In this document: in pieces, positions 15,714 to 63,836 of the stretch
How positions within the stretch are numbered: the first letter of the stretch is position 1
Layout: the number at the start of each line of letters is the position of its first letter
DNA from: Rotaria magnacalcarata
Lineage: Eukaryota
DNA length: 63,836 nt
Assembly: GCA_965140935.1 (NCBI GenBank)
Contig: CBCSLL010000228.1
Location: 14,084 to 77,919 of the forward strand
Direction of reading: 5' to 3'
The notes under the pieces: generated by a model
Seen by the model: only the letters and a program-made list of their open reading frames with translations
Told to the model about the DNA's origin: nothing
The model's database searches: none
Position numbers and translations under genes: made by a program

Positions 15714-16880
15714 TTATTTGTATTTAAATCCAAATGCAAATCCACTTGTAGTTAATATTGTACAAGGCGAATTGCGATCCATTAATTGAAATTGTTCACA
15801 ATTCGATGAGTGATTTGGATTCAATGAATCTTCATTATCGTAAAAACTTGAATGACGAAAGCAATGACAAATATTTATTTTTAATTTCATAAAAAGACGT
15901 TTCCATTCACGACGAAATTTTGAATCAAATAAAATATAAATATAAAAATTTATTGCGAATGATATTTGATATATTGAATGAAAATACTTTTCTAATAGAA
16001 GAATTAATTTTGTTTCAACTATTTTGTGTCCATATAGTAAACGCCATGTATGAATAGATGCATACGGGGCACATATTATTAAATATGATGTCGAAACAGC
16101 TAACAGTAATTTCGTCATTTTACGTGAAGCATTTCGACGTGTTATTTCACGAATTTTATTCAATTGAGAATGATTTCGAAAAAGAAATTCATGTGGACTT
16201 TGTTTCATTCGTCGTAAAGATATTAATATAATTGTATTCATTACTATGATCGAAATATACGGAATAAGAAACACAACAAAGCAATCCACTATATCCATTA
16301 ATTCATTTATCCAACGTAAATGTTTCAATGAAAAACATTGCCCATTAACAATACCGATAAGAAATGGTAAATATGAATAAATTAAACAAGCAATGAATAT
16401 TATGAATAAAGCTAAACATCGAGAACGATACCATGAAAGTACATGTGAAACACGAAATGGTTTTACAACAGCAAATAAACGTTGAGCTGTAAATGACACT
16501 GTATAATAGGCACTTATAAAATTACATACATATGTTAAATATAATGTTAATTGGCAAACTACTGGACGATGAAGGAGATTTATATAATTCGATACCCATA
16601 AACAAAATAAAACAAATAAATATATTGTATCCGAAATAGCCATATAAAAAAGAAATGGATACACGGACATATTCGAGCCCATGGATGCAATCGTCGTACG
16701 TAATGCTCGTTGACCAAAAACAATAATTGCAAAACCATTTCCAATGCATCCGATTAACACTAATAGTAACCAATAGATATGACGAAAGAAAAAATCCAAT
16801 AGAGTTATAGGTGATGGCAGTTCCGCCGTATCCAAACTACTATTTAAACTCGTCGATGTGATATTCTCTGCATCAATCAT
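15714..16880 (-). CDS. Intronless rhodopsin-like (class A) G-protein-coupled receptor, orphan; 388 aa
   Basis: This is a single uninterrupted 388-aa ORF with seven hydrophobic helices. The N-terminal ectodomain has N-glycosylation sites (NITS, NSS). The TM3 end reads 'SFTAQRLFAVV', an AQR variant of the D/ERY motif. TM7 reads 'AINFYIYILF', an NFxxY variant of NPxxY. It has a long basic third intracellular loop ('SLRRMKQSPHEF...RRNASRKMTK') and a cysteine-containing C-tail. Confidence 0.8.
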   Translation of the reverse strand: MIDAENITSTSLNSSLDTAELPSPITLLDFFFRHIYWLLLVLIGCIGNGFAIIVFGQRALRTTIASMGSNMSVYPFLFYMAISDTIYLFVLFCLWVSNYINLLHRPVVCQLTLYLTYVCNFISAYYTVSFTAQRLFAVVKPFRVSHVLSWYRSRCLALFIIFIACLIYSYLPFLIGIVNGQCFSLKHLRWINELMDIVDCFVVFLIPYISIIVMNTIILISLRRMKQSPHEFLFRNHSQLNKIREITRRNASRKMTKLLLAVSTSYLIICAPYASIHTWRLLYGHKIVETKLILLLEKYFHSIYQISFAINFYIYILFDSKFRREWKRLFMKLKINICHCFRHSSFYDNEDSLNPNHSSNCEQFQLMDRNSPCTILTTSGFAFGFKYK

Positions 16881-30361: not shown

Positions 30362-33300
30362 ATGACTGATTCGAAAACTACCGGTGGTAAGCTGCATGAT
30401 GAATATGTTGTTCTTCTAAATATCGATGATGGTACTCTATTTAGTATACCGAATTCCTCCTTTCTACTATTTGCATGTTCTCGATCAGAACACAAATGTA
30501 ACTCGACTTGAAGTAGGTCCTAAAACTTTTGTTAAACAAGATCATGAAAAAGTTTTACTGGGACCTGAAGGCATGTTAATTATTCCGTATGTTTAATTAT
30601 TGTTTGTTTTTTCGCGAGATAAAATATGTTTTCGTTCATAGTCCACGTCATTATGCTGTTATTGATAATCCAGCAGTTCGAGATAAAGATGGTCAAGTTG
30701 TTATAGATGCTAATGGTCAAGTTAAATTATTGCATTCCGATGTTGATATTCGTTTTGCACAAGAACCATTTCCACTTTATCCTGGAGAAACTCTCAAACA
30801 AAATGTTACGCCATTGAAAGTTATTGAACCTAATTGCGCACTACGTCTTCGTACTGTTCTTGACTTCACCAATGATCACGGTGAACTAGTCCGAGCTGGG
30901 GATGAATTTCTTTTCCAGGGACCTGGTATGAAACCATAAGATTTTAGCGGATAAATAGAAAAATTTTTATGTTTTGATGTTTAGGCACTTATTTTCCACG
31001 TAAGGAAGTTAGCGTAGAAGAACAAATTAAAGCTGTTATTCTTAAGCCAAATGAAGCTGTTCGTTTACGTGCTAAGAAAGAAATGATAGATCGAAGTGGT
31101 GTAGAACGAGAAACCGGTGAAGAATGGCTTAATCGAACCGTCGGTTCATATTTACCATTAGCCTATGAAGAAGTTGTCTCGGTTGTCAAAGCCTATGTAC
31201 TTACTGATAAAGTACGATGTTGTGATTCTGTAAAGCATCCTTAATATCCTATTATATGCATATTTTGTTTTCAGAAAGCTCTTCATGTTCGTGCTTTACG
31301 TACGTTCACTGATTTATTCAAGCGTAAGCGTCTTCATGGTGAAGAATGGTTAGTCTATGCAAGTGATAGTGAAACCTATATTCCTGATGTTTACGAAGAA
31401 GTATGTTATCTTGTGTTTTCTTCGATGCAAAGAAAATATCCTTTTTTCTAGGTTGTTGGCGTTGTATCAGTGACAGTATTGAACTCTCGTCAATATTGTG
31501 TTATTGTGGATCCAGTTGATGCCGATGGTAAACTTCAACTTGGAAGAAAAAAACTAATTAAAGTACGAGAAAAATAATTGCATTTATCAAATATAAATAA
31601 TTATTTAACATTTTTCTATTTTTCAGGGTGAAAAAACATTCTTTCTTCAACCTGGTGAAAAATTAGCAAATGGTATTCAAGATGTTTACGTACTTGAAGA
31701 AGACGAAGGTCTTATTCTTCGTTGTACTGAGTCGTTTAAAGAAGACGAAGTAAGTTTGTGCTTTTGTTTATGGTTAATAGAAAATAACGACGATCTCTAT
31801 CAATAGAAAGTCTTACGAAACCCTGGTGATCGTTGGATGGTTCGCGGACCTAAAGATTATATACCGGCTGTTGAAGCCGACGTTGTACTTCGACGTAAAG
31901 CAATTCCATTGGATATTAACGAAGGAATCTATGTTCGTGATGTTAAAAGTGGTAAAGTTCGTGCCGTCATTGGCACAACATATCTGTTAACTGAAAATGA
32001 GGAACTTTGGGAGAAAGATTTGCCAGCACAAGTCGAACAATTACTTGTTTTAGATGCTCGACACTTCGAAGATAAATCAGGTACACCAGCTGCTATTCCA
32101 CCAAGAAATAAATCAAAAGTTGTTAGCTATCGCGTACCGCACAATGCTGCTGTACAAATTTATGACTTTAAATCTAAGAAGGCCCGCATTGTCTTTGGCC
32201 CTGAACTTGTTATTCTTGGCCCTGATGAACAATTTACAATTTTGAATTTATCCGGTGAAAAACCCAAAGTACCAAACAAAATTCGAGCAATCTGCCTTCT
32301 ATTGGGACCAGAATTCTCAAGTGATATTGTTACAATTGAATCAAGTGATCATGCTCGTCTTTCACTTAGACTTTCATACAATTGGCATTTTGAAGTAAGA
32401 ACCATTGAGGTCTTTTTCATTAAAAAGTAAACTGTTTTATGTCCAGGTCAGTGATCGTGAAGATAGCAAAGAAGTTGCGAAACTCTTTTCGGTTCCAGAT
32501 TTCGTTGGAGACTTTTGCAAGGCTGTTGCGGCGAAGATTCGTGGTGCCGTTGCTGGTATTTCATTTGATGATTTTCATAAGAATTCAGCAAAAATTATTC
32601 GTGCTTCTGTCTTTGGTCTTGATGAAAACAAACGAGTTAACAAACGTCTCGTATTTCCACAAAATAACTTGATTTTAACTTCGATCGATATTCAAAGTGT
32701 CGAGCCTGTCGATCAACGAACACGTGATGCACTTCAAAAGAGTGTTCAATTAGCTATTGAGGTAAGATCAGCGTAATTGACATCATTCATTTCAATGAAT
32801 TTTGTTTTGTTAGATTACAACAAATTCTCAAGAAGCTCAAGCAAAGTAAAAATCATTGATGAATTCAAATTGAATGTTCGCAATATTTCTCTTCATAGAC
32901 ATACGGCATCTCGTACAGAACAAGAAGCGAAAGGTCATTTAGAGAGACAGAAGATTGCTGATGAAGCTGAAGGTAAAAAAAAGAATTGATTAATACTTTT
33001 GTAAACAAAGATTTTCATACGTTTTGTTTTTGTTTGTAGCCGAAAAAGAACGTCGAAAACTATTACAACTACAAGCTGAATCATCAGCCGTTGAATCAAC
33101 TGGTCAAGCTAAAGCTGAAGCTCAATCACGAGCAGAAGCTGCTAAAATTGAGGGTTCAGCTGCTGTTGATCAAGGTAAATACTCTTGTCTAGATATGATT
33201 CTAGATTTCATCACATAGATATCTTTTATTTTAGCTAAACTTCGTGCCGAAGCAACAAAAATTGAATCCGATAGTGAACTTCAACGTTTAACACAAGCAC

Positions 33301-34557: not shown

Positions 34558-37500
34558 CTATTCATGTTCTTCGACATGATAATTGCTCGAAGTTGCAGTT
34601 GATGTACGAGGTTTTTGATTCATATTTCCGGTCATACCGCCTAGAAGACCTTGTCCGAATCCCATAAGATTGATTGGTGAACGGCCATCGGTAACCAACA
34701 TTGATTGAAGACCAAGTGCTTGTAAAAGTTTAACTTGTGTATCTGGACCAGACGTCGCAATAGCTTGTATGGTTGATGCACCAATCGCTTCAACTTGTAA
34801 TTTGAATTTATCGGTTTCAATTCTTGACATTTCAGCTTTTTTCGTGATTTCTAATTCATTTTGTTCACGTAAATATTTGATTTCAGCTTCGCGTGCTAAT
34901 TTCAAACGTTCTAATTCAGCCTCAGCTTCAATACGTGTCGCATCGGCTTTGAGACGAGCTAATCGAAAGAAAGAAAAAGAAAAAGTTTATTATTTAAACA
35001 CTTCGATTTTATTTTTACCTTGTTCAACGGCAGCTTTGCCTTCAATGAGAGCTGATTCAGCTCGACTTTGTGCTTCAGCTTTAGCGTGACCACTGACTTC
35101 AACAGCAGCTGATTCAGCTTGCAATTCAAGAAGTTGTCGTCGAACTTCCTCAGCTTCGGCTTCATCTTTTATGCGTTGGCGTTCGAGTAAACCTTTGGCT
35201 TCTTGTTCTCGACGTGAAGCTTCATGTTTAGCTGCAGCCTCTTGTGAATTTGTTGTAATCTAAGAAGCCAAAAAATTCATTGATACGGATGAAATCAATT
35301 ACATGTATCTTACTTCAATAGCCAATTGAACACTCTTCTGAAGTGCATCACGTGTTCGTTGATCAACAGGTTCGACACTTTGAATATCAATCGACGTAAT
35401 AACGAGATTATTTTGCGGGAAAACGAATTCATCTCGTACACGTTGATTCGAATCAAGACCAAATACAGCTGCACGAATAATATGAGCTGAATTCTTATGA
35501 AAATCATCGAATTGAGTTCCAGCAACAGCACCGCGAATACGCGATGCAATAGCTTTAGCTGCATCACCAACAAAATCGGGTACTGAAAAAAGTTTAGCAG
35601 CTTCTTTTTCGTCTTTAGTGTCGTTAACGTCGAAATGCCAATCTAAAGAAAAAATAGAGAGTTCAAAAAACATTTTCCTTTTTGAAATTTATCAATTTAC
35701 TGTAAGATAATTGAAGTGAAAGGCGAGCATGATCAGCTGTTTCAATAACAATAACATCGGTAAAGAAATCAGGACCAAGAAGTAAACAGAGTGATTGAAT
35801 TTGGTTCGCTTTTTTTGGCACAGAACCACTCAATGAAAGTAATGTAAAATGTTCTTCTGGGCCAAGCATAACAAGTTCAGGGCCAAAGATAATGCGTGCT
35901 TTTTTAGCCTTATAATCATAAATCTGTACAGCGGCATTGTGTGGCACGCGATACGCAACTAATTTCGATTTATCACGTTGAGTTGCGCTTGATTTTGCAC
36001 TTGCTTGCGTTGTCGTAGTTGCTTGCTGTTGAGCTTTATCTGCGCCTTGATTACGTGTTGGAACATTTCGTTCGGCTAGCGGATCACGAGAAAGTAACTC
36101 TTCAACTTGTTTAGGCAATTCTTTTTGCCAAAGTTCTTCATTTTGTGTGAGCATATAAGTTTCACCAACAACAGCTCGTACACGACCGGTTTTGATATCA
36201 CGAACATAGATACCTTCGTTTTCATCTAAAGGCATTGCTTTACGACGTGTAACAACTTCAACTTGTGTTGGAGGAATATATTCGCTATAGCGAGAAAAAA
36301 ATTAAAATTTTCAAACTAAAACTCAATGAATCGGTTTCTTACTTTGGCCCACGAATCATCCATCTGTCGCCGGGATTTCTTTCAACATGTGCTTGTTCAT
36401 CGGTAAATGCTTCGATACATTTAAGAATAACACCTTCATCTTCACCCAATATATACACATCTTGAATACCATTTTCAAGCGTCTCACCGGGTTGAAGAAA
36501 GAATGATTTTTCGCCAACAATAAGTTTCTATTAGAAACAAGAAATGATAACTTAGACAAAAATAATACTAGCACAAACCTTTTTTCCTAATTGCGGTTTT
36601 CCGTCTTCAACTGGATCAAGAACAACGCAATATTGTCGTGAGTTAAGTGTTATTACACCAACTACGGCCACTAACTGTTCATAAACATTGAGTGTATGAG
36701 TTTCAGTATCTTTGAGAGTTACAAGCCATTCTTCTCCATTCATACGATTTTTACCAAAATCATCCGTAAATGTTTTCAGAGCACGAAGATGTAATGCTTT
36801 TTTATCTGTTAATACATGAGCACTTTCGACCGACACAACAGTTTCCTAGATTATGGAAATAATAGTTAGGAGAAGAATTTTCAAACGTAATTTCCCTTAC
36901 ATAGGCAAGTGGTAGATAAGCACCGGTTTTTTTTATTAACCATTCTTCGCCGGTGACACGTCGTTGACCTGTTCGATCGATGATTTCTTTTTTAGCACAC
37001 AAGCGAATAGCTTGATTCGAGCTAATGACCGTGGCACGAATTTGTTCTTCTACGCTAACTTCTTTTCGTGGAATGTAAGTGCCTGGTCCTTCAAATAGCC
37101 ATTCGTCACCAGCACGACGCTGTTCTTTTGCTGTATCATCGTCGAAGTCGAGTACAGCCTTTAAGCGTAAAGCTGAATTAGCTGGTACGACTTTAAGTGG
37201 AGTAACTGGCTATCAAAGACTAGATTGTAAAAATGAAAAGTAATAATATAAATTTTTCTACCTGACGAAGAACTTCGCCTGGATAAAGTGGAAATGGTGA
37301 TTGATCAGTTTGTGCAAGACGAATATCCAAATCAGCATGAACAAGTTTAGCTTGGCCATTGGCATCGAATTGAACTTGTCCTTCGACATTGCGTATGACA
37401 GGCGATTCAACGACACAATAGTGACGTGGCCTAAATATTATTTTTATTTTTACTTTGTTGTTTTTCGAATTAATTTACGTACGGTACTGTAATCATTTTT

Positions 37501-58071: not shown

Positions 58072-59017
58072 TATATATATATATATTTTTTTTTTCTTCT
58101 TCTCATTCTTTCTCACTCTCTCTTGCTTTTGATAGTTATCATCGATTCCTCTTTTTGAATTAGGCTACGAGCAGATACCCCGGTGTATGTGCATGAGTAT
58201 AAAAATTAAGAAAAAAAAAAGAGAAAGACAAAGAGAGTCTGTGTATTTACTTTTCATTTTTATTTACTATTCATTCATTTGTTTTGTTTTTCTTTTTCGT
58301 CAGTCATTTCTGTCTCGTCTCTTTTTTTCTCACTCTCTCTCTCTCTCTTCTGTACTTATTACTGTTCAATTTCTTTTCAAGATAAAGACAGATGAAGAAA
58401 CAGCAGAAAAAAATTCAAGATGTCGAAATGCATATATAATTTGACACGCAATAACATTATTCATTGGCAAAAGATTTTAGTTCCTTTCTATTTGTTTGAT
58501 TGACCTTTCATTTAAAATGCATTGTTTGAACATTTCCCTTTTTCTTTTTTCTTCTTCAAAAAAAGAAAAATTTAATCAATGATTAATTATCCAATCTAGT
58601 CGTGTTGATTCAAAGAAATTTAACAGAAGATGAAAAATAACACTGATTGGCAACTTTGTTGCAGTAAAACTATATTTGTTTTTGAATATTTCATATGACA
58701 TTTATTGACACAGATATAATTGATTTTCTTTTTGTATTCTGCTAAGGAGAAGAGAGAAGAAGGAGGAAAAAAAAGAAAGAAAATCGTTTTTTCATCAATA
58801 TCAGAAATACTTTTTAAAAACGTTAATGTGCACTCAATTGAATCTCTTATTCTTGACAATCGATTTTGTCTACATGGTATTTCCATGGATTTCTAACAAA
58901 ACGAGTTTCTGAATTTAAACATTTATTTAATCAAATGCAAAATGCCAATCTAGGTTATATATAAAAAAAGATAGTTTTCTTTTGTTTAATAGATCTGTCT
59001 AGAATTCATCGTGATGT

Positions 59018-59504
59018 TCATTTGCGTTTTTCTTCCTTGCTTTTCCGACGCTGCAATGGCGAATCTACTCTTCGAGCTTCAAAAACACGTTGTTGTTGTA
59101 ATGGCCAATACTGTTGATAACCAGAAACATTTTGACCTAAATACGATTGAGGCCAAAGCGAAGCTTGTTGCTGTTGCGGATAATACGAAAGCTGCTGCTG
59201 ATAAAATGGATATTGTGCTACTTGTTGCGGATAGTAGCTCTGCTGAGGGTAGTAGCTTTGTTGAGGATAGGAATATTGTTGCGGATAGTAGCTTTGCTGA
59301 GGATAGGGATACTGTTGCGGTTGGTAGTATTGTTGTGGATATGATGCACCATATCCTGGATATTGCTGTGGTAGAGCAGCATTTGAAAAAGCATTAAAAC
59401 TGCCTGTGCAAGGTGCACATTGTTGACACTTAAAAAAACGAAGTTCAATTGTTAGTTTATTTTATAAAAGGAAAAACTCTCACTTGTTGTGGAACGGCTT
59501 GCAT
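59018..59504 (-). CDS. Small Gln/Tyr/Pro-rich tandem-repeat protein (approx 144 aa), 2 exons: 59484-59504 and 59018-59428 (minus strand)
   Basis: Minus-strand model: ATG at 59504, 21-nt exon 'MQAVPQQ', GTGAGA donor, 55-bp intron ending ...TTTAAG, then the second exon. It translates to 'CQQCAPCTGSFNAFSNAALPQQYPGYGASYPQQYYQPQQYPYPQQSYYPQQYSYPQQSYYPQQSYYPQQVAQYPFYQQQLSYYPQQQQASLWPQSYLGQNVSGYQQYWPLQQQRVFEARRVDSPLQRRKSKEEKRK*' (stop TGA 59018-59020). There are TATA-like elements (59596-59607) upstream and ATTAAA/AATAAA signals downstream at approx 58905-58925. No homolog recognised, so this rests on gene structure only. Confidence 0.45.
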
Positions 59505-62187
59505 TGCTGTGTATATGTTTGAATAAGATGCGAATATTAAAAAGAGTGTTTTGTAATGAAAGTACTGTGTTTATATACTCGAATGTTTAATGATAGCTAT
59601 ATAAAAACTAAGGGTCGAAGGTCTTTTTCTTTTTTGCTTCAGGCAGTTTCTTTATTGTCAAATAAATATATCATGATGTCAGATATTAAGAGTGAGAATA
59701 GTCTATACATATTTGGACTTGATACTTAAGGAGACAAAGATCTCTCATAAAGTATTGATAACGCATTTTGATAAACGAATCATGACCATGAAGAGAAAAA
59801 AATTAATTTTGTGCCGATGAGTAATACAAATCATAGGCAGAGTTCAACAATGTTGTGTTTTATTATTGCGATATTTAAATCAGTCGTGCAGAACAGCGTA
59901 GCTGTTTCTTTAGATAGTTTCATATATGATTCATTCAAGAAAATTACTTTAAGTTTGTAAATTAATCATCAAAAATTTAGATGTTAATATGCATATTAAA
60001 TGTTAAGATAACAAGTAATTTATCCATTAGAATATAACGATTTATATGTGAATTTTTAATCTAAACTATGTACTCATGTCGATATTGCAGAATATTATAA
60101 GGAGAAAAAAAAATAGTCATAAATATGTTATAGATTTTATTGAAAAGTATAAAAGCGAAAGTTATTCCTTGAATAAGGACATTGACACTATGAACTATAG
60201 CTGGCAGGTATGATTGAAAGAACATACTTACTGCCTAGCGGCATCTCTAAAGTGAAGAATTTTATTTGACACATAGAAACTAGCCACACGAATAGGTTCG
60301 TATTTTTAAATCATACGATCTGTTAGTACGCTTGTAAGCAAAGATCCATCGATCTAGCCAATCACGCGCCGTCATTCCTGTTATCATTAATTGAATTTAT
60401 AAGATGCGGTAACTTGCACTGAAATCACTATTTTTTAATGATAGTATCACAAAAACAACGTTCGATATGCCTACGTTAGTGCGAACAAACATATCACTAG
60501 GGAATATTACTGTCAACAATGGCAATACGGTCTATATTATTCTATAGGACTGTAATCGTTCATGTCTGATTCACAGGTTAATTTTTACTAGCACCAAATT
60601 CGCTTTGATTTTTCTATATAAAGAAAAAATGTCGAATATAAACGTACTTTTCAATCACAAATCGATTGACGTTAATGAGGCAAAGCGAATAAATTAGATA
60701 CACAATGCTGAAAACTAAAACTGGTATTCACAGTTTGATCTGCTTGAATAAGTTATGTCCATTTTTTACATTCAAAATATTCCCTGCCGTACTATTTTTC
60801 CTTTGTGCATTTTCTACTAAATCCTATTTCATTCCTACCATTTGAGAATGATGAAGCCATTGAAACCCTATAGCAGATGCCTCCTACACAATAATCAATA
60901 GGTTTGAAAATCCAATGTCTATCATTACAAGTATAGTGTTTATATCGAATGACGATGTTATATTTAGCATTTACATGGGTATGAATTTTTTCTATAAAGC
61001 GAAATTGAAGAATTCGAGGAAACAAAACAAAGCAAATATTTTGATTGATGTAACAAAGGAAATGTATCGGTGAGCTATTGATAAAGCAAAAGAACGATGT
61101 TGCAGAGTCTGCGTCTGCTAGCTATGAAATATTATCAAAGAGGAAAAACCTAGAGTCGTTTATATAAATAGCACGAGTTCCGATCTCCGAATATAGAATT
61201 AGTAGTCTGTAATCAGGCTCGAATACTAATTACATAATAATGCGAGTCATATGTTATTCACAAATCGCACATAATCACTTCAAACTTCTGTTCGATCTTG
61301 ATACTTATAAATCAAAGGGTTTTCTTTTTCTATTGTACTTTTTGTTTCATAGAAAGCCTGAAAAACAAAATTCACAAAAGAATTCAACCGTATTTTATTG
61401 TCGATTTGTATAGCATTTCCTGTAAGATGATCAGTATTGTTTTACTTCCGATTTTCTTTTTATAATGTCCCGTTGCCGACGTGTTACGATAGGATGCATG
61501 CATTGTTTGAAACAAAATTTCCACACACAAAAGTACTTTATTATGATAAAACATGCCGCTCTGTAAAGGGCACATTGTTACAGTAAAATAAATGCTGTCC
61601 TGTCCGAGTGGTCCTTTTGTCGGGGTATCGGCGATTATGCTGGCACCTGACAATCTCAGAACGATCTATAAATTTTGTTTTCGGTTGATTGATAATATAT
61701 ATATTCCTGAAGATTAACACATGGCACATTATTTCGAAGTCATTTATTCTCCAAAGCGACAATTGAAAGCTTTCTAGAAAAGCAAAACAGATCTATTTTA
61801 ATACTATCAGCACAAAAAAAAAGAAAAAGAAACAAAAGCCCACTATTGGTGAATCCAAAAATCCCGCCATTATACAAATGAATTGAAGCGAAGATATTCC
61901 GATAGTTTTTTTTCTCTATCATACTGTTTTTTTATGCTTCATCCCAAATATAGAAAGTGTGAATGGGAGAGGGAGCGAGAAAAAAGTCCAAAATCTATTT
62001 GTTATAGAGAAAATAGAACAACTTCAAGTGGAATTTATATCAAAGTTATTTCTATGTTTAATGTTATTCGACATATTTCTTTCCAACTAACAATTATTTT
62101 CTCTACTACTCAAACAAGCAAGGTACTAGTATTTGAATATCAACAAAAACCTTTAATTCGATGTTTTGAAATCTTCTAGAAATTATT

Positions 62188-62451
62188 ATGCGTGCAACAT
62201 TGATGAATAGTCTATTATGCTGTTTTTTCATGGTTCTTCTCGGTATAACATTTTTGTCGAGTGCATCAATTGAAAATAATGAACACTCTCTTGATGATAA
62301 GGACTACAACAGTTTTTATCCAGTGCATGCATTCGATGATCGTGCAGTTAAATCACGATTTTGGAAACGTGCTCCACGTCGTCATTTTTGGAAACGATCA
62401 GTGGTTGAGCCATCAATGCAAAATGATAATACGGCTAAACCTGTCTCTTAA
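62188..62451 (+). CDS. Putative small secreted prepropeptide (87 aa) with signal peptide and two dibasic-flanked R[S/H]FWKR motifs
   Basis: Single ORF 'MRATLMNSLLCCFFMVLLGITFLSSASIENNEHSLDDKDYNSFYPVHAFDDRAVKSRFWKRAPRRHFWKRSVVEPSMQNDNTAKPVS*'. It has a hydrophobic N-terminal signal (predicted cleavage approx after SSAS) and an acidic spacer. It then carries two copies of xRxFW followed by KR (prohormone-convertase-type sites), a layout typical of neuropeptide / antimicrobial peptide precursors. No homolog recognised. Confidence 0.35.
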   Translation: MRATLMNSLLCCFFMVLLGITFLSSASIENNEHSLDDKDYNSFYPVHAFDDRAVKSRFWKRAPRRHFWKRSVVEPSMQNDNTAKPVS

Positions 62452-63540: not shown

Positions 63541-63836
63541 GTGTACTCAAAAGTGAGTAAACTACTAAAGTCGGTCAGTGTGTCCAGCCGTCCGTTTATT
63601 CGATTGAGCTGAAATTTTGTGTACAGAATTATCTCATCAATATCTAGGTCGAGTTCGAAGATGAGAGGGATCCGTCAAGAAACGGCTGAGTTATCGAAAA
63701 AATTGTCATTTTTGATCAGACCATCCCTGAGGGAGAGTACAGGGATTTTTCAAAAATAAAAAAGCTTTTCTCAGAATTATCCACAACATATATAAATCGA
63801 CTCAGTTTTTAACGCTGATTCTGAATCTGATATTAG
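63541..63836 (-). repeat. Interspersed repeat, copy B (same family as 14985-15305, opposite orientation; truncated by window end)
   Basis: This is the reverse complement of copy A, as described for that feature. It runs to the last base of the window, so its full length is unknown. Confidence 0.8.

Follow-up and report, generated by a model that had tools for sequence, protein, structure and literature searches.

A two-exon gene of the bdelloid rotifer Rotaria magnacalcarata for a small, predicted disordered protein of glutamine, tyrosine and proline repeats

The N-domain of yeast Sup35 carries Gln/Tyr-rich oligopeptide repeats, PQGGYQQYN. The FET protein EWS has a degenerate hexapeptide repeat, SYGQQS, in which the tyrosines, or their aromatic side chain, are critical for activity (PMC3005952). 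SS18 self-associates and phase-separates through the tyrosines of its Gln/Pro/Gly/Tyr-rich QPGY domain (PMC9117659). Here we describe a gene of the bdelloid rotifer Rotaria magnacalcarata for a protein of comparable composition. It lies on the minus strand at 59018-59504 of a stretch of 63,836 nucleotides from contig CBCSLL010000228.1 (positions 14,084 to 77,919 of the forward strand, assembly GCA_965140935.1), which is called the window below and to which all coordinates refer unless another contig is named. A two-exon gene at this place had been proposed from the letters of the window in an initial annotation, and every coordinate of it holds on direct reading and splicing. The spliced product has 143 amino acids (aa), MQAVPQQ followed by CQQCAPCTGSFNAFSNAALPQQYPGYGASYPQQYYQPQQYPYPQQSYYPQQYSYPQQSYYPQQSYYPQQVAQYPFYQQQLSYYPQQQQASLWPQSYLGQNVSGYQQYWPLQQQRVFEARRVDSPLQRRKSKEEKRK with the exon join after residue 7, and contains 26.6% Gln, 15.4% Tyr, 11.9% Pro, 9.1% Ser and 3.5% Gly. 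That the gene is real and restricted to bdelloids, and that its protein is disordered, is almost certain.

Like the QPGY domain of SS18/SYT, a subunit of the BAF complex, the rotifer protein is a disordered, almost chargeless low-complexity sequence rich in Gln, Pro and Tyr, with Tyr at short intervals. Unlike SS18 (SSXT), it lacks the N-terminal SNH (SSXT) domain that binds BRG1, and Pfam gives 0 matches; its N-terminus (MQAVPQQCQQC...) leaves no room for a helical domain of ~60 aa, Gly is scarce, and the protein consists of almost only a low-complexity domain, a short motif and a tail, with no detectable homology to SS18. With the low-complexity domain of the FET proteins (FUS/EWS/TAF15) it shares uncharged hexapeptides with 1-2 Tyr per unit, a Gln/Ser context and disorder, a resemblance in kind only. 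The RRM, RGG and RanBP2 zinc finger of those proteins are absent (Pfam again 0), the protein ends 23 residues past the repeat domain, and it is rich in Pro where they are rich in Gly, has a total length of about 140 aa and is bdelloid-restricted. The resemblance to Sup35 is short and compositional: Gln/Tyr-rich oligopeptide repeats occur in both and GYQQY of the conserved rotifer motif recurs in the Sup35 repeat, whereas in the rotifer protein Asn is rare, Pro is much commoner and no functional domain is attached. In a sequence search of PDB, nothing better was obtained than weak matches (E 0.01-0.3) to the Tyr-rich stretch of mammalian PrP, which reflect composition and not homology. By its composition the protein would be of the Tyr/Gln-rich, prion-like disordered kind, and it is assigned to no named family, falling outside the FET, SS18, eggshell and Cys-cluster proteins, the last two of which are considered below. 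Its true homologues are Adineta vaga I4U23_013370 and unnamed products of A. ricciae, A. steineri, Rotaria sp. Silwood2, R. socialis and R. magnacalcarata, which form an uncharacterised family. The bdelloid homologues agree in start, intron position and phase, charge-free repeat domain, motif, tail, TATA box, upstream block and neighbours, and differ in repeat number and unit, in a YERxY(S) end, in the number of Cys (1 to 8) and in a frameshift in R. sordida.

The length of the open reading frame (ORF) is weak evidence for a gene here, since Markov-1 random windows of the same composition hold 0.55 stop-free stretches of >=137 codons per window. Such a length is thus not rare, and the antisense frame too is open for 125-128 codons in the window; both points favour the view that no functional protein gene is present, and that the reading frame is a chance ORF in a microsatellite-like repeat or the locus a non-coding RNA, or that an ORF on the plus strand is the real one. 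The gene nevertheless goes beyond chance because it is conserved across genera and because an identical gene call exists in public assemblies. Five public assemblies of R. magnacalcarata call a 143-residue gene on the minus strand, over 487 bp that map exactly to 59018-59504; the DNA of the locus is identical in four of the five assembly contigs, and the fifth differs by one base (Q39P). The gene is therefore not undiscovered: it is an already predicted, though unnamed and uncharacterised, taxon-restricted low-complexity gene. The Gln/Tyr/Pro frame has no stop across exon 2 in five species, while every other frame is interrupted. The plus-strand alternative weighed in the initial annotation, an Ala/Val-rich ORF of 128 aa at 59011-59397, fails on examination: its frame has 1-4 stops in the homologues and 1 in the window itself, as against none in the Gln/Tyr/Pro frame, and its longest open run is 47 codons in Rotaria sp. 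Silwood2 and 65 in the metagenomic locus L002 (L numbers denote retrieved loci or contigs). Being broken in the homologues, it was rejected as a real product, and it is the mirror image of the low-complexity coding repeat. Conservation across genera extends to the start codon, the intron phase and the stop region, indels of repeat units are multiples of 3 or 18 nt, and Rfam gave no credible match in or around the gene at either gathering or E-value thresholds. Between genera, the proportion of nonsynonymous differences (pN) is 0.25-0.34, far below that of synonymous ones (pS), which is saturated at 0.5-1.0. Between R. magnacalcarata and R. socialis, the nonsynonymous and synonymous substitution rates are dN=0.045 and dS=0.27 (dN/dS=0.17), and the length differences amount to one whole 6-aa repeat unit and one codon. 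In these two species the gene is evidently under clear purifying selection, as judged from the substitution pattern. The view that there is no protein gene is already largely refuted, and we give it almost no credence. Exon 2 contains no in-frame ATG, and upstream its frame runs into a stop within the intron; therefore, translation needs the splice to the 7-codon exon 1.

A single-sequence search with phmmer found three relatives, including the A. vaga hypothetical protein I4U23_013370, with reported E=2.8e-10 and 1.2e-7. A profile of four full-length sequences added two copies of A. ricciae, A. steineri, Rotaria sp. Silwood2 and further metagenome/Logan sequences, with E down to 6e-43 for A. 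vaga and of 4e-21 to 6e-10 for A. ricciae, A. steineri and Rotaria sp. Silwood2. When 1.84 billion cluster representatives were searched exhaustively with an HMMER profile, the same family alone was returned (E 1e-35 to 1e-7), apart from one weak match. This sole non-rotifer sequence (P0030, E=3e-4) is G-alpha-like with an artefactual YPLIEQDVI repeat, and was rejected as a compositional match. The R. magnacalcarata contigs and the copies of R. socialis (annotated, 138 aa) and R. sordida (92 aa) were retrieved through a neighbouring ORF at 62188-62451. Homologues are also carried by eight metagenomic/Logan loci, three of which came from a scan of metagenome contigs for the pattern GYQQYWP. All relatives found are from bdelloid rotifers or from unassigned metagenomic contigs with the same architecture, in line with the initial surmise of a lineage-specific gene, and the database search for related repeat proteins that had been proposed as a check brought up only this bdelloid family besides the compositional exception. 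The earlier statement that no known family is recognisable also stands, an hmmscan of the product against Pfam giving 0 families at E<=10. Profile and exhaustive searches of collections that are incomplete found no member in monogonont rotifers or acanthocephalans; the protein collections searched do not hold the annotated 143-aa product of R. magnacalcarata and 138-aa product of R. socialis, though the gene-position index has both. So far, then, the family appears to be known from bdelloid rotifers only, with the caveat that the searched collections are incomplete. No mention of it came up in a literature search on prion-like, Gln-rich or integument proteins of bdelloids.

The homologues share a well-defined architecture. 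All full-length members start with MQ(Y/F)FPQQ-type sequences (MQxFPQQ). In A. vaga, Rotaria sp. Silwood2, R. socialis, R. sordida and four metagenomic loci, an intron of 49-63 bp in phase 0 lies directly before xQQC. It is followed by a repeat domain of Gln, Tyr/Phe and Pro, present in all full-length members, whose unit, copy number and length vary among genera; the unit is YPQQSY in Rotaria and QQQQYPFYPQ in Adineta. The imperfect tandem repeats that had been noticed in exon 2 were found by Tandem Repeats Finder with a period of 18 nt (4.3 copies, 75% matches; also periods of 36 and 54), which corresponds to hexapeptide units of the YPQQSY type. A WP dipeptide and, a few residues on, the near-invariant sequence GQN(A/V)xGYQQYWPQQQxRV(F/Y)E occur in all full-length members, the invariant columns being G105, Q106, N107, G110-P116, Q118, Q119, R121 and V122 in the numbering of the window protein. 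All full-length members end in a Lys/Arg-rich tail, the net charge being +3 to +7 in intact ones; the basic C-terminus RRKSKEEKRK reported for the window protein is present and such a tail is common to the family. In Adineta and some environmental copies an extra C-terminal YERxY(S) is present. Charges are distributed in a strikingly uneven manner: residues 1-120 of the window protein are free of Asp, Glu, Lys and Arg, and its last 23 contain 14 charged residues. The first of these residues appears at 71-88% of the length in 9 of 11 members, the exceptions being the frameshifted R. sordida copy and L002 with one early Lys, and the charge-free domain makes up about 80-85% of the protein across the family. 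Family members contain 25-35% Gln and 11-17% Tyr, with lysines grouped in the tail. Synteny is likewise kept in Rotaria, Adineta and metagenomic contigs, with a convergent gene of the zf-CXXC/PHD/JHD (KDM2-like) type downstream and an RFW-type secreted precursor upstream.

The N-terminal CxxCxxC of the initial annotation, CQQCAPC, is present in the window protein and in R. socialis, and a small protein binding zinc or copper through these residues might be imagined. It is not a feature of the family: only the middle Cys, C11, is invariant, A. vaga having CQQCLLT (CQQC only), the metagenomic L002 AQQCSTC and A. ricciae only QC, which contains the single Cys of its entire protein, while the number of Cys across the family ranges from 1 to 8. 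With one of three Cys conserved and no match to a zinc-finger family in Pfam, we regard a metal-binding protein as extremely improbable.

Tyr-rich tandem repeats are also found in flatworm vitelline and eggshell precursors and other quinone-tanned proteins, an analogy drawn in the initial annotation. A secreted, quinone-tanned eggshell or cyst-wall protein of this type is disfavoured, the organism being a rotifer and the flatworm proteins being secreted and rich in Gly, Lys and dihydroxyphenylalanine (DOPA), whereas the rotifer protein has no signal peptide, little Gly (3.5%) and no Lys outside the tail. Secretion was judged in 11 family members by Kyte-Doolittle hydrophobicity as a proxy. By this measure none of the 11 has a hydrophobic N-terminal segment, the maximum over 12 residues being <=0.96 (0.53 in the first 41 residues of the window protein) as compared with 3.0 for the neighbouring secreted precursor. 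A missing upstream exon for a signal peptide is unlikely because the N-terminus MQxFPQQ is itself conserved. As all family members lack a signal peptide, a secreted eggshell protein is very unlikely.

Intrinsic disorder is predicted for the protein: AlphaFold2, run on an alignment of 9 sequences, gave a mean predicted local distance difference test (pLDDT) score of 47 and a predicted template modelling (pTM) score of 0.12 with no secondary structure, confidence being slightly higher (50-56) over the conserved C-terminal part. The prion-like or phase-separating character suggested at the outset fits on the level of composition, by predicted disorder, the charge-free aromatic/Gln domain and the hexapeptide repeats. 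By analogy, the repeat domain might serve as a multivalent self-association module, in which tyrosines act as 'stickers' and Gln and Pro as 'spacers', and self-association might lead to an intracellular assembly in the form of a condensate, a gel or an amyloid-like structure, as with the QPGY domain of SS18. The conserved C-terminal motif would be a specific partner-binding element, and the basic tail would provide nuclear targeting or binding to nucleic acids or other acidic partners (polyanions). Composition and both ends are under selection, and the number of repeats drifts by gain or loss of whole units. The self-association mechanism through tyrosine and glutamine, deduced from composition, is tentative, its chances being at best about even. 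As the explanation of the locus as a whole, a bdelloid family gene for a disordered self-associating protein with a partner motif and a basic tail is held with slightly better than even confidence. Several points weigh against it. Self-association is argued from composition alone, and Pro at ~12% and near-absent Gly (3.5%) are unlike FUS/EWS-type domains and disfavour amyloid. The tail is only loosely similar to a nuclear localization signal, which a protein of 16 kDa does not need. The frameshift of R. sordida destroys the motif, and the Silwood2 copy swaps several Tyr/Trp for Cys. Every homologous contig retrieved (Logan and metagenome contigs) is genomic with the intron retained, and restriction to bdelloids is qualified by the lack of the R. 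magnacalcarata and R. socialis products in the protein collections.

A different use of the same composition is conceivable, namely an intracellular structural protein that is covalently cross-linked in the manner of the cornified envelope, as are small proline-rich proteins and involucrin. Cross-links would be formed by transglutaminase between Gln of the body and Lys of the tail, by dityrosine, or by disulfide via the conserved Cys, possibly in the intracytoplasmic lamina of the syncytial integument or in the jaws. The skeletal layer of the rotifer integument is intracytoplasmic, and TATA-box promoters are typical of terminal-differentiation genes. A small, repeat-built protein of the Gln and Tyr contents given above with its lysines clustered in the tail, with no signal peptide, as suits a cytoplasmic structure, with one invariant Cys and with a TATA-box promoter would be consistent with such a role. 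On the other hand, Pfam detects no Cornifin, involucrin-type or other domain, and the Gln-rich body and Lys-rich tail are only a compositional parallel to SPRR/involucrin; the family was not found in monogononts or acanthocephalans, which have the lamina too; the copy of R. sordida is decaying; and the literature search gave nothing relevant. Taken together, the cross-linked structural protein seems rather unlikely, and a self-associating disordered protein is still preferred.

The family has not been kept intact in all lineages. In the R. sordida copy (L017 600-927, minus strand), deletions of 1 nt and 7 nt in the conserved motif cause a frameshift that leaves 92 aa, and two other R. sordida contigs showed no copy within the 6 kb examined. 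In the copy of Rotaria sp. Silwood2 (L004 10001-10390) the frame is intact, several Tyr/Trp are replaced by Cys and the total reaches 8 Cys. As these copies read, the gene is decaying or changing in the R. sordida/Silwood2 clade, and its function there is dispensable or changing. In the comparisons of Nowell et al., R. magnacalcarata and R. socialis are reportedly not desiccation-tolerant while R. sordida is tolerant. If these phenotypes are right, a gene that is intact in the former two and decayed in the latter argues against a dedicated role in anhydrobiosis.

The upstream region contains two conserved elements (Table 1). TATA(T/A)AA occupies the aligned position in each of the five upstream regions compared, and is also found at L018 and L020. 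The TATA-like and poly(A)-signal motifs of the initial annotation are thus in place, TATATAAA 66-73 nt before the ATG and AATAAA ~90 nt after the stop codon. Farther upstream, a 25-bp block (CACTCTTAATATCTGACATCATGAT) is the best-conserved stretch in the upstream alignment of five species. The pattern CACWCTYRATAWYNGACATCATGAT occurs once, in the corresponding position, in A. vaga, a metagenomic rotifer, R. socialis and all R. magnacalcarata loci but L010, variants with one mismatch are found in L003, L004, L017, L018 and L020, and within the window the core of the block occurs only at 59670-59694. It is probably a promoter-proximal cis-regulatory element. A reading as a CRE/ATF-like site (TGACATCA) is only a lead, because its first T is not conserved. 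Another reading, in which the block would be a coding mini-exon that opens a divergent gene on the plus strand (ATG ATG TCN NNT ATH RAG + GTGAG), third-position variation having looked coding-like, was rejected: in Rotaria sp. Silwood2 an insertion of 1 nt alters its phase, and tblastx between the block and the next gene revealed no conserved downstream exon. Conservation of the TATA box and the block may suggest tightly regulated, cell-type- or condition-specific transcription.

Table 1. Elements of the Gln/Tyr/Pro-repeat gene and its flanks in window coordinates
Feature	Position	Strand	Description
Conserved upstream block CACTCTTAATATCTGACATCATGAT	59670-59694	minus	25 bp, 166-190 bp 5' of ATG
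TATA box TATATAAA	59570-59577	minus	66-73 nt before start codon, by direct reading
Coding exon 1	59484-59504	minus	ATG plus 6 codons, ATG CAA GCC GTT CCA CAA CAA (ATGCAAGCCGTTCCACAACAA), MQAVPQQ; same start as public gene call L006 6831-7317
Intron	59429-59483	minus	55 bp, phase 0, GT..AG: GTGAGA...TTTAAG; GTGAGAGT...TTTTTAAG; 3' end TTTTTTTAAG
Coding exon 2	59018-59428	minus	411 nt = 136 codons + TGA
CQQCAPC, residues 8-14	59408-59428	minus	Only C11 (59417-59419) kept across the family
Core tandem repeat	59222-59341	minus	Period 18 nt, hexapeptides YPQQSY / YYPQQS (Tandem Repeats Finder)
Conserved C-terminal motif GQNVSGYQQYWPLQQQRVFE, residues 105-124	59078-59137	minus	Invariant or near-invariant alignment columns
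Basic tail RVFEARRVDSPLQRRKSKEEKRK, residues 121-143	59021-59089	minus	All 14 charged residues of the protein, net +6
Candidate poly(A) signal AATAAA	58922-58927	minus	~91 nt past stop codon, by direct reading

The window is AT-rich (GC 31-37%) and dense in eukaryotic genes with short introns, including ACE-like, G protein-coupled receptor (GPCR), sulfite oxidase, major vault protein (two copies) and exostosin-like genes. The single-exon GPCR ORF at 15717-16880 is an exact match to R. magnacalcarata CAF1108191.1 and related accessions. The exons of the two major vault protein copies, which have diverged, are arranged tail to tail within ~6 kb, at 30589-32776 on the plus strand and 34558-36235 on the minus strand; R. 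magnacalcarata and R. socialis products of 892 aa with the annotation major vault protein were in a protein cluster retrieved by look-up of window sequences, among which was the exact match of the GPCR ORF.

Closer to the Gln/Tyr/Pro gene, ~650 bp past the stop of the KDM2-like gene (...IPQMFAV*), at 58074-58730 on the plus strand, contain islands that are near-invariant between Rotaria and Adineta, where synonymous sites are saturated: AGGCTACGAGCAGATACCCCGGTGTATGTGCATGA, TTAAAATGCATTGTTTGAACATTT, AATCAATGATTAATTATC.AATCTAGTC.TGTTGATTC and TTTGTTTTTGAATATTTCATATGACATTTATTGAC. This region is non-coding because all frames have stops and indels are not multiples of 3; Rfam gave only sub-threshold miRNA-like matches for it. 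It is probably an unusually conserved 3' untranslated region directly adjoining the 3' end of the Gln/Tyr/Pro gene. On the other side, the plus-strand ORF at 62188-62451 encodes 87 aa with a clear signal peptide and peptides flanked by dibasic sites (...KSRFWKR APRRHFWKR...), and resembles the precursor of a neuropeptide or peptide hormone. This ORF, annotated only as an unnamed product, is conserved in R. socialis, R. sordida, A. vaga (L001 8703-8945) and metagenomic rotifers. In the same neighbourhood, A. vaga (L001 5347-5691, minus strand) and a metagenomic rotifer (L002 6654-6998, minus strand) have a classic multi-copy neuropeptide precursor, in which a signal peptide is followed by five copies of LASAKFASGLGKR, with LASAKFASGL as the predicted amidated peptide. 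A counterpart of this precursor was not found within the window, which ends at 63836.

Taxon-restricted disordered proteins are a frequent site of lineage-specific biology, tardigrade CAHS and Dsup being the standard examples. What was a sequence curiosity is now a defined, conserved and taxon-restricted family with clear boundaries, set by start, intron, repeat domain, motif and tail. On present evidence it is another uncharacterised orphan low-complexity gene, of an unusually strict charge-free design and with a sharply conserved motif. As a very small and almost wholly charge-free Tyr/Gln/Pro module, the protein offers a convenient natural test case for composition rules of self-association. 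It is quite doubtful that the family is a bdelloid-specific invention in the stronger sense, either a self-templating or condensate-forming protein with a dedicated role linked to bdelloid life or a cross-linked cytoplasmic component of the intracellular skeleton of syndermatans, with the motif recruiting a partner. If true, selection on composition alone would have shaped a compact natural 'sticker-spacer' protein.

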